Sequence record: PV763136.1
Length of the DNA: 64,000 nucleotides
Source: Escherichia phage vB_EcoM_YN3
Strand: one strand, 5' to 3'
Shown: piece by piece, positions 21,128 to 24,226 of the stretch
How the letters are laid out: each line of letters begins with the position of its first letter
Numbering within the stretch: position 1 is the stretch's first letter
Translations under genes and position numbers: made by a program
Notes under the pieces: model-generated
What the model saw: the letters and a program-made list of their open reading frames with translations, nothing else
Told to the model about the DNA's origin: nothing
Database searches by the model: none

Positions 21128-22174
21128 TTAAGCATAAGATATAGTGATCCATTGACCATTTACAAATTTTTGAATGGCTCCAGTCCAATAGTCGCCCTGA
21201 TACGGGTGTTTATAGGCGTAATTGCCGGAGCACATTACATGCCCAGGGTATACTCTTGATTCTCTGTAGGTGGTTCTGAAACGGTTTGCTATCCTTACAT
21301 CTTCAACACCCCTACTAGGCATAGGAATAGTAAGGTTACCACTACTGTCTGCGCTACTACCATTTACCCTGCGGACCACGTTTCTTCCACCAACTGTTGC
21401 ATATTGACCCCTGGCGGTTTTATCGTTACAATCTACTCTTCCGCCTATTTGAGCGCTGCCGCAGGATTGTTGTCCATTAACAGTGGCTCTAGGTATCGTT
21501 ACCGCATTAGCATTTGCAGAGGAACTTTTTGCATCGTTGCATTCAAGATTTCCTTGGATAGCCAGTCTTGCACGGTTGGCAGTTATAGCATTGAGCTTCA
21601 TAGCCGAAAACACAGGCTGCCCACCAGAAGGTTGAAATCTCCAACGGAACCCATCTATTTGGTGAGAAGGATCATCAAGGTCTGTGCCGTCAGCACCACC
21701 GATGTTGTCCATAATCCAGAAGTCCATCGTCGTCTTGTCTGGAGTTATGGTAGTATATATTGCCGCATTGTCTGTTGACGCAGATGCAAACTCGATTCTT
21801 TGGAGACCTAAAGTTTGAGTCTGAGTCATTATGTCTCCAGACTTGTCAACATATAGATCGTCCATTTCTTCAGGCGAGTATACATTGAGAACTTGACGTG
21901 CAGCAGCTTTGTCTGGAACGTCTGCTAGATTATTAGTGACCCTTAAGAATCTATTATCCCATCCTGGGACAACATCTTCTGTTAAATGCTTCAACCACGC
22001 AGAAAGCATGTGAAGTTCAAAGTTAACAACTTCACATGCCATTCTTTGTGTCATATCCCAACCTTTCAATCTCTCTTCTTTTTTTGGTTGAGATTTATTC
22101 AACTCTCCCGTATTTTCAAGCACAACATCCTGATTGGCCCAAATATCAAGAGGGATAACTGGTTTAGTCATCAC
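21128..22174 (-). CDS. tail fibre protein (paralog B)
   Basis: 348 aa; N-terminal and C-terminal segments (…GAIQKFVNGQWITISYA) shared with the 23186-24226 product, central part divergent. Confidence 0.55.
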   Translation of the reverse strand: MMTKPVIPLDIWANQDVVLENTGELNKSQPKKEERLKGWDMTQRMACEVVNFELHMLSAWLKHLTEDVVPGWDNRFLRVTNNLADVPDKAAARQVLNVYSPEEMDDLYVDKSGDIMTQTQTLGLQRIEFASASTDNAAIYTTITPDKTTMDFWIMDNIGGADGTDLDDPSHQIDGFRWRFQPSGGQPVFSAMKLNAITANRARLAIQGNLECNDAKSSSANANAVTIPRATVNGQQSCGSAQIGGRVDCNDKTARGQYATVGGRNVVRRVNGSSADSSGNLTIPMPSRGVEDVRIANRFRTTYRESRVYPGHVMCSGNYAYKHPYQGDYWTGAIQKFVNGQWITISYA

Positions 22175-22260
22175 GTTCTCCTGAGAAAATTCCTTAGAAC
22201 TATTTTAACACTTTAGAGAACAAAATGCAAGAACGGAGTCCTTTCCGTTCTGACCTTTGT

Positions 22261-22575
22261 TTACCTTTTACTATGCTCTACAAGCATGTGCAAAATCTTT
22301 TGTACATCAGCTCTGATGCCGGAAACATCTGTCCTGACATCCTGCTTAAGGTCGTTAATATCGGCCTCTAGCTTGCTTAACCGGGTCTCGATAACGGAAT
22401 CAAGTTTATCTTTTGTAACCATACTGTTTTTCACTAAGATGAGGTCTTTCTCCAGTTCATCCAGCCTCTTGGAAATGCCTTTCCATTTGGTGTGCCACTG
22501 GTTGAAAGCCCATACACAGATCGGGACAACGGTACCCATGCAGATACCGTACAATGCCGCCAAATCCAACTCCAC
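22261..22575 (-). CDS. membrane-anchored coiled-coil protein
   Basis: 104 aa; one N-terminal TM segment (LYGICMGTVVPICVWAF) then heptad-like charged sequence. Confidence 0.35.
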   Translation of the reverse strand: MELDLAALYGICMGTVVPICVWAFNQWHTKWKGISKRLDELEKDLILVKNSMVTKDKLDSVIETRLSKLEADINDLKQDVRTDVSGIRADVQKILHMLVEHSKR

Positions 22576-22586
22576 AACACCTCCTC

Positions 22587-23171
22587 TTAGAGGGTAGGTC
22601 GCTCCGGGAAGAAAATGTCAGGGGCTTTAGATGTATCTATTTCAAGAAGTTTTACCCTGTACATTTTCAAATCCCTGATGTTACGTTTCTGGTCATCAGT
22701 AAGATCATATTCAAGGTCAATCATGTCTTGATAGGCACCAATTCTAGCAGTAGCCCAAGCAAGTTCTGTCTCTATGACACCCTCTGCCTGTTGAACAAAG
22801 AATTCATTATCTGTGACAAATTCATCACCAACTAAACGCAAAGCGTCGTGGTGAAGCATAATGTTTTCTGGTACCTCTTCTTTTTTGGCGATAACCACAC
22901 GAAGACCTGGAGCAGGCCATAAGGCATCAGGTTCTTCTGTAGATGTCTTAAGAATTCCCTTCTCGTCAACAAGTAGGAAGATACAACCCGGATTTTCTTG
23001 TCGTAATGTTCGTGACTGCACATACCAATCGCCATCATCATTACGTAAAAAATACCCAGTGTATGCGGTGTAATCCTCAACCTCTTGAGGGGTCAGCTCT
23101 TTGGTTTCCTTGTTGGCGTGGTATTCGCCAGATCCCGGTTGGTAAAGTTTAAACTCTTGAAGTATTTTCAT
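22587..23171 (-). CDS. tail fibre assembly protein (Tfa-type chaperone)
   Basis: C-terminal motif KMYRVKLLEIDTSKAPDIFFPERP matches the conserved Tfa signature; immediately downstream of a fibre gene. Confidence 0.65.
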   Translation of the reverse strand: MKILQEFKLYQPGSGEYHANKETKELTPQEVEDYTAYTGYFLRNDDGDWYVQSRTLRQENPGCIFLLVDEKGILKTSTEEPDALWPAPGLRVVIAKKEEVPENIMLHHDALRLVGDEFVTDNEFFVQQAEGVIETELAWATARIGAYQDMIDLEYDLTDDQKRNIRDLKMYRVKLLEIDTSKAPDIFFPERPTL

Positions 23172-23185
23172 GCTAGTCCTCCGAT

Positions 23186-24226
23186 CTATGCATAATTAAC
23201 AGTGATCCATTGACCATTTACAAGTTTTTGTAAAGGTCCTGCCCAGTAGGTTGAACCACGCATCTCTTTTTTGTCACCGAAATGCCAGCCTGTGACAACG
23301 TAGCCGTTGCGAATTGGAGATTCAGAAACGCCGTCAACAAGTCTTGCACCGATTCTGATGTCTTGCACACCTGTCTGCGGGATAGTGATCGTTACATCAC
23401 CGTTACCGTTAGCCGTCACTCCGTTCACAGAGCGAACCACATTTCTGTTACCGACAACACAGTGCTGACTTCTTACAACCATGCTGTCACAACTTGCACC
23501 ACCATTAACATATACTGACCCGGCCGTCAACTGACTAGCCACATTACAGTTGGTGAATGTTGCTGTATTGCTGATAGTAAGGTTATTGCACCTCATGTTA
23601 TCGACAACTTCAACATTGCCTACCACTTTCAACAGCGCACGGTTCGCCGTGATCGCGTTAAGGTACATCAAAGTGAACTCTGGATTAATATCCGGCTGAG
23701 TTGGCTGGAATCTCCAACGAAACGCATCTACTGTAGATGTACCACCATCATCAAACGACCCAATATTATCACTTAACCCGAAGTCGAGAGTTGTCTTATC
23801 TGGGCCAATAGTTGTCTCTATCCAAGCCTTATCTGTCTCGGCAGCTTTAAAGTTGATACGTTGCAAACCCAACGGGCCTGTCATTGTATCACCTGTAACT
23901 TTTACATACCTGGCGTCTGCCTCTTCCTTGGTAATAATCCCAAGGTTTCTACGGGCAACAGGGATGTTCAAAAGATCACTCAAGTTATTATCACGTACCA
24001 GATAACGGCCTTCTTGAGCGGGGATCTGCTCGTCAGCAATGTATTTTGCCCAAGTTCCGAGCATATTGAAAATATAGTTAAGTTCTTCACATGAGGGCTT
24101 TTGACCAAGATCCCAACCTTTTCTCCACAAATCATCAATCGGGCGTAGCCTGTTCTGTCTGTGGGTGTTAGGCAGAACCTGATCCTCCTCTGCCCAAATC
24201 TCTAATGGAAAACTAGGTTTTGACAT
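23186..24226 (-). CDS. tail fibre protein (paralog A)
   Basis: 346 aa; shares termini with the 21128-22174 product (…GPLQKLVNGQWITVNYA). Confidence 0.55.
   Translation of the reverse strand: MSKPSFPLEIWAEEDQVLPNTHRQNRLRPIDDLWRKGWDLGQKPSCEELNYIFNMLGTWAKYIADEQIPAQEGRYLVRDNNLSDLLNIPVARRNLGIITKEEADARYVKVTGDTMTGPLGLQRINFKAAETDKAWIETTIGPDKTTLDFGLSDNIGSFDDGGTSTVDAFRWRFQPTQPDINPEFTLMYLNAITANRALLKVVGNVEVVDNMRCNNLTISNTATFTNCNVASQLTAGSVYVNGGASCDSMVVRSQHCVVGNRNVVRSVNGVTANGNGDVTITIPQTGVQDIRIGARLVDGVSESPIRNGYVVTGWHFGDKKEMRGSTYWAGPLQKLVNGQWITVNYA

Follow-up and report, generated by a model that had tools for sequence, protein, structure and literature searches.

The paired short tail fibres of Escherichia phage vB_EcoM_YN3: old paralogs distinguished chiefly in their N-terminal halves

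Why does an rV5-like phage keep two similar short tail fibre genes, and what sets their products apart? The question was addressed in a 64,000-nt stretch of Escherichia phage vB_EcoM_YN3 (PV763136.1), referred to below as the window, in which all of the genes of interest lie on the minus strand. The window derives from an rV5-like Escherichia coli myovirus of the genus Vequintavirus and is about 98% identical to rV5-like coliphages; its positions 20800–24300 matched 115 phage records at 95–99% DNA identity, the top match being Escherichia phage BP9 (98.8%). The fibre pair is that of rV5, gp33 (here short tail fibre 1, STF1) and gp30 (STF2), and the window is another isolate of a known locus. 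The gene order is identical in rV5, JES2013 and Bas49/52/53/54, and the rV5/BASEL locus (Bas49–Bas54) shares 97–99% DNA identity with the window at equal gene order and sizes, so that nothing substantive differs. In the direction of transcription the module consists of:

23186–24226, minus strand: STF1, short tail fibre paralog 1, 346 amino acids (aa), ortholog of rV5 gp33 and bas54_0035
22587–23171, minus strand: Tfa, tail fibre assembly chaperone, 194 aa (rV5 gp32, bas54_0036), the sole Tfa in the locus
22261–22575, minus strand: m1, 104 aa, hydrophobic anchor plus coiled coil (rV5 gp31, bas54_0037)
21128–22171, minus strand (open reading frame from a GTG, to 22174): STF2, short tail fibre paralog 2 (rV5 gp30, bas54_0038)
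20850–21116, minus strand: m3, 88 aa, weakly hydrophobic, a conserved partner in the module (rV5 gp29, bas54_0039)
19095–20840, minus strand: LTF581, lateral tail fibre, 581 aa (rV5 gp28, bas54_0040; phrog_4549, E 6e-250)

The likelier start of STF2 is the ATG at 22171, which lies 6 nt after an AGGAG and gives the 347-aa product annotated elsewhere; the GTG gives 348 aa.

BASEL labels these six genes short tail fiber protein, tail fiber chaperone, hypothetical, short tail fiber protein, hypothetical and lateral tail fiber, and names the gp33/gp30 pair "short tail fiber 1/2". The two rV5 proteins were reported to be 42.3% identical and to resemble T4 gp12 by HHpred (Kropinski 2013). Two paralogous short tail fibres and a chaperone characterise the Vequintavirinae sensu stricto, and their locus is homologous to the single phi92-like locus and to Mu GpS/GpU (Maffei 2021). 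The paralogy is consequently established knowledge, noted in 2013 and 2021. What is new in this analysis is the replacement by STF2 of m2, a gene of the related single-fibre modules, the separate late promoter of STF2, and the clustering in the N-terminal half of the residues that define each paralog.

BLASTP aligned the whole of STF1 with the whole of STF2 (43% identity, 59% positives, E 2e-95), and both match phrog_4465 from end to end (STF1, E 9e-172, residues 1–346 on profile positions 1–342 of 342; STF2, E 2e-165). The first-pass annotation, made from the sequence of the window without database searches, had taken them for products of a duplication, and true paralogs they are: a full-length E-value of this size rules out chance or low-complexity similarity, and the resemblance shows no low-complexity bias. 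The common C-terminus which it had pointed out (...VNGQWIT(V/I)(N/S)YA) was also recovered, with the last ~20 residues near-identical and coinciding with the longest stretch of DNA similarity between the genes (63 nt, 79%). Strong conservation at the C-terminus is limited to these ~20 residues, and the description of the pair as having conserved termini and a divergent centre proved wrong. In sliding 30-residue windows the centre (residues ~100–200) is the best-conserved part, at 53–67% identity, and minima of 27–30% fall at residues ~40–80, within the N-terminal domain, and at ~204–240 and ~290–320. Several indels of 2–6 residues separate the paralogs in the shaft and distal region. A search for a third paralog in the 64-kb window found none. 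Nor was cassette swapping between genomes seen, for which the first-pass annotation had advised a comparison with related phages, STF1 being at least 98.6% identical in 115 records; no allelic variation has been reported for the short tail fibres (Maffei 2021).

To see which residues define each paralog, three lineages with an equal two-STF layout were compared: the window, a divergent lineage, L009, and L021, a 140.6 kb Vequintavirus-like contig. A homologue search with STF2 had returned three hits, all close relatives, and it was through such searches that L009 was reached. Sites at which each paralog is invariant in all three lineages but the two paralogs differ number 14 in positions 1–100, eight in 101–200, one in 201–285 and none in 286–346. 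With 22 such residues in the first 200 positions against one in the distal part, paralog identity resides in the docking and shaft half. The tips instead vary by lineage: in L021 (STF genes at 1844–2884 and 3917–4981) the last ~60 residues of the two paralogs are 83–93% identical, 78.5% over 177 nt of DNA, and these tips appear to have been homogenised between the paralogs.

This distribution bears upon a reading, also that of Kropinski, in which STF1 and STF2 homotrimers compete for the six wedge sites, bind two chemotypes of the lipopolysaccharide (LPS) core and thereby broaden the host range. The tip loops (residues ~290–325), which in the window lineage show an identity of only 27%, fit such a role, as does the broad host range of the rV5-like phages (Maffei 2021; Kropinski 2013); and as the N-terminal domains are homologous (39% identity), a common docking site is conceivable. 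However, the paralog-fixed residues avoid the very region, 286–346, in which receptor specificity would be sought and gather in the first 100, the L021 tips are nearly identical, and the docking motif PIDDLW, kept from phiTE to STF1, is lost in STF2. Two competing receptor-binding options are therefore regarded as unlikely. The proposal of the first-pass annotation that the duplication had diversified receptor specificity stands as far as the duplication itself and the difference in tip loops are concerned; the residues that characterise each paralog lie in the docking and shaft half and not in the tip.

Which of the two is the older form? At the 14 fixed N-terminal sites the outgroup state is carried eight times by STF1 and three times by STF2. 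STF1 is 47–52% identical to the single STFs of Av-05, PVP-SE1, GAP31 and L012, and STF2 is 40–45% identical to all single STFs and 43–47% to STF1. Between the window and L009 the identity is 87% for STF1 and 77% for STF2, the latter evolving faster. STF1 keeps the motif RPIDDLW.KGWD, found also in phiTE and W70, together with a tip loop, TGW.FG.KKE.RG, which it shares with Av-05, PVP-SE1 and Phapecoctavirus; in STF2 the N-terminal docking motif is altered to QPKKEERLKGWD and the tip loop to CSGNYAYKHPYQG. Because STF1 has the outgroup state at more of the fixed sites and STF2 changes faster, STF1 is the ancestral-type copy and STF2 the derived one.

The duplication is old, since identity at third codon positions is at saturation everywhere except in the last ~20 codons. 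This saturation rules out that the genes were duplicated recently or that gene conversion is still at work in the window lineage. In a full-length neighbour-joining tree STF1 and STF2 are sisters (72% bootstrap); the N-terminal tree gives no resolved grouping. Horizontal gain of STF2 from a known single-STF genus is disfavoured, no single STF being nearer to STF2 (40–45%) than STF1 is. On these two grounds, duplication within the lineage followed by faster evolution of STF2 is preferred, though not proven.

The position of the second copy is informative as well. The ancestral-type module reads STF-Tfa-m1-m2-m3-LTF (lateral tail fibre), with m1 of 104–112 aa, m2 of 152–157 aa and m3 of 86–91 aa, m2 having 3–4 predicted membrane helices (phrog_7451, PF26221). 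This single-STF module was seen in PVP-SE1 and GAP31 (Seunavirus), Av-05 (Avunavirus), W70 (Septuagintavirus) and phiTE (Certrevirus), as well as in a Klebsiella phage and in metagenomic contigs. A tblastn search placed m1 in 223 phage records, always after Tfa. m2 was present in 107 records, of which none belongs to Vequintavirus and all have a single STF in the module just described; the window contains no match to m2. STF matches in two places per record were obtained in exactly 116 records, all of Vequintavirus. The presence of STF2 and the absence of m2 are perfectly complementary, with STF2 occupying the m2 slot in 116 of 116 Vequintavirus records: STF2 replaced m2 of the ancestral module. 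Phapecoctavirus keeps STF-Tfa-m1, has no m2 at the equivalent position, and carries an 80-aa m3 homolog upstream of its wedge genes.

The spacer differs as well. In single-STF relatives m1 and m2 overlap; in the window m1 is followed by a spacer of 86 nt, in which a hairpin, a T-rich tract, TGTTAAAATA, AGGAG and the start codon follow one another. The signals considered are:

22230–22251, minus strand: terminator-like hairpin between m1 and STF2
22201–22210, minus strand: late-promoter motif TGTTAAAATA, ~30 nt upstream of the STF2 start
19066–19087: terminator after LTF581
28532–28541, minus strand: late-promoter motif at the start of the unit running from the wedge gene through STF1 to m1
28577–28598: terminator preceding that unit

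The hairpin has an 8-pair stem, followed by TGCATTTTGT, and the spacer, folded as 92 nt, has an energy of -23.1 kcal/mol (z -2.3). In L009, the proteins of which are 77–88% identical to those of the window, the stem is kept through compensatory changes and the late-promoter motif is invariant; the hairpin is absent in the single-STF relatives. The motif TGNTAAAATA occurs seven times in the window, always on the minus strand, against 0.93 copies expected (22201–22210, 28532–28541, 34349–34358, 34487–34496, 48486–48495, 52007–52016 and 56503–56512). Six of the seven lie in gaps, 18–43 nt upstream of a start codon, and the copy at 34487–34496 is inside a 1267-aa open reading frame (34418–38221); a terminator-like hairpin immediately precedes three of the intergenic copies. 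TGNTAAAATA is the motif TggTAaAAtA, which was proposed as the rV5 late promoter (Kropinski 2013). Since STF2 has its own hairpin and late-promoter motif, and a terminator follows at 19066–19087, the late units are probably two: one from the wedge gene through STF1, Tfa and m1, and one consisting of STF2, m3 and LTF581.

What the two fibres look like was assessed by phmmer against PDB sequences. Residues 1–108 of STF1 match the phiTE short tail fibre (9cuy_c, E 1.4e-19), residues 3–92 of which form a trimeric joint that binds the wedge protein (wedge 1; PMC11972413). In phi92 the counterpart, gp147, is fibre III, which is attached to the bottom of wedge protein gp145, points downward, and has a proposed role in stable adsorption and as contraction trigger (PMC13450770). 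The N-terminus of STF2 is homologous to this joint and is without the PIDDLW motif. At the other end, residues 286–343 of STF1 match the Mu tail fibre protein S (5yvq_A 440–501; also 9ki1); the E-value, 1.7e-6, is modest and is backed by a published model comparison (PMC12143355). That study, RBPseg, describes the STF class (structural class TC1) as Mu-like at the C-terminus, reports one STF density in the 7–9.5 Å maps of Bas49/Bas54, where the phage group has nine annotated fibre genes, and notes extra density without an assigned protein on the head of the TC8 fibre. Judged from the published description of fibre architecture, LTF581 is probably this "TC8" fibre of Bas49/Bas54 (PMC12143355); its orthologs carry the PF26208/PF26209 domains (Phage_phiTE_241_N/_C).

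The chaperone that the first-pass annotation had placed between the fibres is there. Tfa matches PF02413 (Caudo_TAP) over residues 121–192 with 45.8 bits against a cutoff of 22.1, and phrog_136 with E 2e-36. It starts 14 nt after the STF1 stop codon, STF2 being followed by m3 instead. Between lineages the N-terminal half of Tfa is more variable than the C-terminal half, which fits the modular model, in which a variable domain at the N-terminus binds the fibre and a conserved one at the C-terminus trimerises (PMC9608196). Both fibres and the chaperone reach the virion in rV5, in which the tail fibre proteins found by mass spectrometry include gp30, gp32 and gp33 and not gp31 or gp29 (Kropinski 2013). 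For W70, STF and LTF were detected by virion mass spectrometry; Tfa, m1, m2 and m3 do not appear in the portion of the table considered here.

A single chaperone, and a single STF density where both proteins are in virions and both are scored as essential (see below), might be explained if each wedge carried a single trimer made of both STF1 and STF2 chains, with Tfa folding it. Broken threefold symmetry would help the N-terminal joint to fit an asymmetric wedge site; the shaft (residues 100–200) and the last 20 residues are the best-conserved parts of the two chains, and chains that fold together would be expected to evolve in concert at their tips, as those of L021 do. On the other hand, the indels in the shaft and distal region, the strongly different tip loops of the window lineage and the placement of the two genes in separate transcription units all argue against mixed chains, and we know of no precedent for a heterotrimeric phage tail fibre. 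Such a trimer is improbable.

Are both fibres needed? In the HIDEN-SEQ transposon screen of Bas54 on E. coli K-12 (bioRxiv 10.1101/2025.11.20.689424), the whole run from bas54_0035 to bas54_0040 was scored essential, with the following numbers of TA sites hit:

STF1: 3 of 61, essential
Tfa: 2 of 35, essential
m1: 1 of 20, essential
STF2: 1 of 57, essential
m3: 0 of 19, essential
LTF581: 1 of 123, essential
Intimin fibre: 281 of 336, not essential
FnIII fibre: 180 of 221, not essential

The transposon used lacks a terminator, and the study argues that polarity is not widespread (bioRxiv 10.1101/2025.11.20.689424). Since STF2 is preceded by a promoter of its own, no gene of the upstream unit follows m1, which makes a polar artefact less likely in the case of m1. 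That both paralogs are scored essential on one host, K-12, also counts against their being alternative receptor options, which should be individually dispensable there.

Taken together, the data are best explained by two non-redundant, co-expressed fibres that differ in attachment and are served by one Tfa, a reading to which we give a probability of roughly 0.55. STF1 and STF2 would be ancient paralogs of one Mu-S/phiTE-type fibre, trimeric by homology, each with a wedge-docking joint of ~100 residues at the N-terminus, a conserved central shaft and a Mu-S-like distal tip. Tfa, the one chaperone, encoded after STF1, would nucleate the folding of the tip, and it can presumably serve both fibres because their last ~20 residues are near-identical. 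STF1 would be the wedge-docked copy and is taken as the binder of the first outer-core glucose of LPS, the terminal receptor (Maffei 2021). STF2, having replaced the m2 gene with its predicted four membrane helices and gained a terminator-like hairpin and a late promoter, would head the late unit STF2-m3-LTF581. On this reading both are present in the virion, co-expressed and not redundant. Because it is the N-terminal attachment half which chiefly distinguishes the paralogs, the two most likely sit at separate places in the fibre network (STF1 perhaps on the wedge, STF2 on some further site or fibre) and are less likely to be alternative receptor-binding options for one site. The present analysis supplied the evidence of homology and gene order, the m2 replacement, the promoter and hairpin and the pattern of fixed differences, whereas virion presence, essentiality and receptor come from the literature; from these we infer the different docking sites and the use of one chaperone for both.

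Several points weigh against this explanation. Polarity may underlie the essential calls, of STF1 through Tfa and m1 and of STF2 through m3 and LTF581. No structure places either paralog, the Bas49/Bas54 cryo-EM maps being at 7–9.5 Å with one STF density, and an AF2 monomer model of STF2 (5-sequence alignment) was unusable (mean pLDDT 29.8, pTM 0.21), so that the domain boundaries were taken from sequence matches and from models in the literature. The tip loops differ in the window and L009 lineages, and a second receptor specificity is possible. Finally, support for the sister grouping of STF1 and STF2 is moderate. Even so, two receptors are probably not the whole story of the pair.

A place for STF2 may be the density on the head of TC8, probably the fibre encoded in STF2's own unit; this is a lead, not evidence. 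A more elaborate proposal, put forward tentatively and with the odds against it, makes STF2 an obligatory positional paralog with a new N-terminal adaptor, for example as the TC8-head density or as a chain of a heterotrimer, and has m1 and m3 include the holin of the Vequintavirinae or a membrane-bound platform for fibre assembly.

The rV5-like phages, which rank with the coliphages of broad host range most often isolated, are candidates for use in therapy and biocontrol. Should the two STFs be non-redundant and differ in attachment, host-range engineering by tip swaps must treat STF1 and STF2 differently, and structural work should seek a second docking site. The replacement of m2 by STF2, together with the essential m1 and m3, offers concrete, testable candidates for a holin or a fibre-assembly factor.

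What, then, are the small proteins which accompany the fibres? The first-pass annotation had described the 104-aa product between them as a transmembrane plus coiled-coil protein, and its architecture was borne out: m1 (phrog_5345, E 1e-48) has a hydrophobic segment at residues 5–23 (Kyte-Doolittle 19-residue mean 1.91) and a remainder made of heptad repeats, in which 15 of the 22 a/d positions are hydrophobic. The lysine- and arginine-rich residues which follow the anchor suggest that the coiled coil is cytoplasmic; the C-terminus ends ...EHSKR. The homologs of phiTE and W70 differ by an insertion of exactly seven residues which keeps the heptad register, the signature of a true coiled coil. 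The family is small and confined to phages, with only 13 representatives at E<=1e-3 among 1.84 billion proteins, and a homologue search by sequence gave six hits, close relatives which are all at least 83% identical. No match to m1 was found in Pfam or NCBIfam, and a profile search of the PDB gave only generic coiled coils (best E 0.0011); the corresponding search of PDB sequences with m3 gave no match, and neither protein is a modelled chain in the PDB entries of the phiTE virion.

m3 (phrog_1322, E 3e-32) has 34 invariant columns across six genera and a maximum 19-residue hydropathy of 1.05. phrog_1322 also forms the core of ~160-aa proteins encoded beside DNA polymerase and helicase genes in large phages (L062, L063 and similar contigs of 120–155 kb). 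As the m3 family is thus also found away from fibres, next to replication genes and, in Phapecoctavirus, upstream of the wedge genes, it is not tied to tail fibre loci.

Two roles for m1 were considered and rejected. It is not a lipoprotein, there being no lipobox, and the Phapecoctavirus homolog annotated as "lipoprotein" has no Cys. Its architecture is similar to that of an i-spanin, but the adjacent gene is STF2 (the 4-TM m2 in the relatives) and not that of an o-spanin lipoprotein, no lipobox is present, and positive charges follow the transmembrane domain (TMD); the spanins of this phage group are annotated beside the terminase (bas54_0001/0002).

A further idea is that m1, possibly with m3, is the missing holin or a holin-associated lysis protein, placed after the chaperone as T4 t is after 38. 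The annotated "putative holin" of Bas54, bas54_0115, tolerates insertions at 27 of its 28 TA sites, while the endolysin (bas54_0202) and both spanins (bas54_0001/0002) are scored essential, which would place the real holin among the essential genes left unannotated. m1 is small, late-expressed and scored essential, has one N-terminal hydrophobic anchor, and is not among the virion proteins reported for rV5 or, in the part of the table considered, for W70; T4 and Bas37 have holin t directly after gp38. Yet m1 has no holin family match in Pfam, PHROGs or NCBIfam and is not adjacent to the endolysin gene, which in Bas54 lies far from the locus. The hydrophobic segment of the Phapecoctavirus m1 homolog is short, most of m1 is a coiled coil of ~80 residues, which holins do not typically have, and m3 has only weak hydrophobicity and is far better conserved than is usual for holins. 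The tight synteny of m1 with Tfa fits a role in fibre assembly equally well, and the essential bas54_0110 (117 aa, N-terminal TMD), which like the Bas54 lysis genes named above lies outside the window and has homologs in L074, is an equally good candidate. A holin role for m1 is quite unlikely, and m1, m3 and bas54_0110 may be listed together as holin candidates of the rV5-like phages. Most likely m1, a membrane-anchored coiled-coil protein restricted to these phages, acts as a non-structural membrane assembly factor or as a lysis component.

The module is flanked by the following genes:

27009–28499, minus strand: Baseplate_J wedge protein, 496 aa (PF04865)
26311–26997, minus strand: baseplate protein, 228 aa
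24239–26311, minus strand: NCTSP-like deacetylase fibre, 690 aa (PF23845, PF23844)
13410–19046, minus strand: intimin-like fibre, a lateral tail fibre of 1878 aa

Besides the PF23844/PF23845 domains ("non-contractile tail sheath protein"), the 690-aa protein has matches to Calx-beta. Its counterpart is the N4 gp65-like deacetylase fibre, which the literature ties to recognition of the ECA/NGR glycans, and the 690-aa protein is found in Vequintavirus and Av-05 and is absent at the equivalent position in PVP-SE1, GAP31, W70 and phiTE. Elsewhere in the window, six tRNA genes (Pro, Met, Thr, Ser, Arg) are clustered at 60862–61801 on the minus strand; the cluster includes a 99-nt ARAGORN call (61107–61205) with a four-base anticodon (atcc), for which the amino-acid identity was not called. 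Among the database matches to positions 20800–24300 are 16–21 GenBank records (MG0656xx) entered as "Campylobacter phage" (host C. jejuni) and up to 97.8% identical; these are most likely mislabelled or contaminating coliphages.

Comparison with well-studied systems places the pair among known fibres. In phage Mu the tip of S aligns with the C-terminal ~60 residues of the STFs, and the fibre gene is likewise followed directly by a Caudo_TAP gene; in their N-terminal and shaft parts the STFs show no relation to Mu S beyond a weak similarity. Mu has two alternative fibres through inversion of the G segment, one expressed at a time and each with its own chaperone, whereas the window has two full-length paralogs fixed in the genome, co-expressed, and one chaperone common to both. 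TfaMu stays on the Mu fibre, which parallels the detection of Tfa in rV5 virions.

The fibres of phiTE (gp236; 9cuy/9mjn) and phi92 (gp147) have the homologous ~100-residue N-terminal joint that docks on the wedge protein, and their genes hold the equal position, after two wedge genes and before Tfa and m1. These phages carry one STF each, as against two in the window, and the phiTE fibre, with its long coiled coil and Ig-rich head, is flagellotropic, unlike the STFs described here.

T4 gp12, with its chaperone gp57A, is a functional analogue: a trimeric baseplate fibre whose binding to the LPS core makes adsorption irreversible. Its tie to the rV5 STFs is the HHpred similarity reported by Kropinski 2013; T4 has a single gp12, which is folded under the baseplate. 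gp57A is a small coiled-coil helper needed for gp12 trimerisation and offers a possible analogy for m1, which, unlike gp57A, has a membrane anchor.

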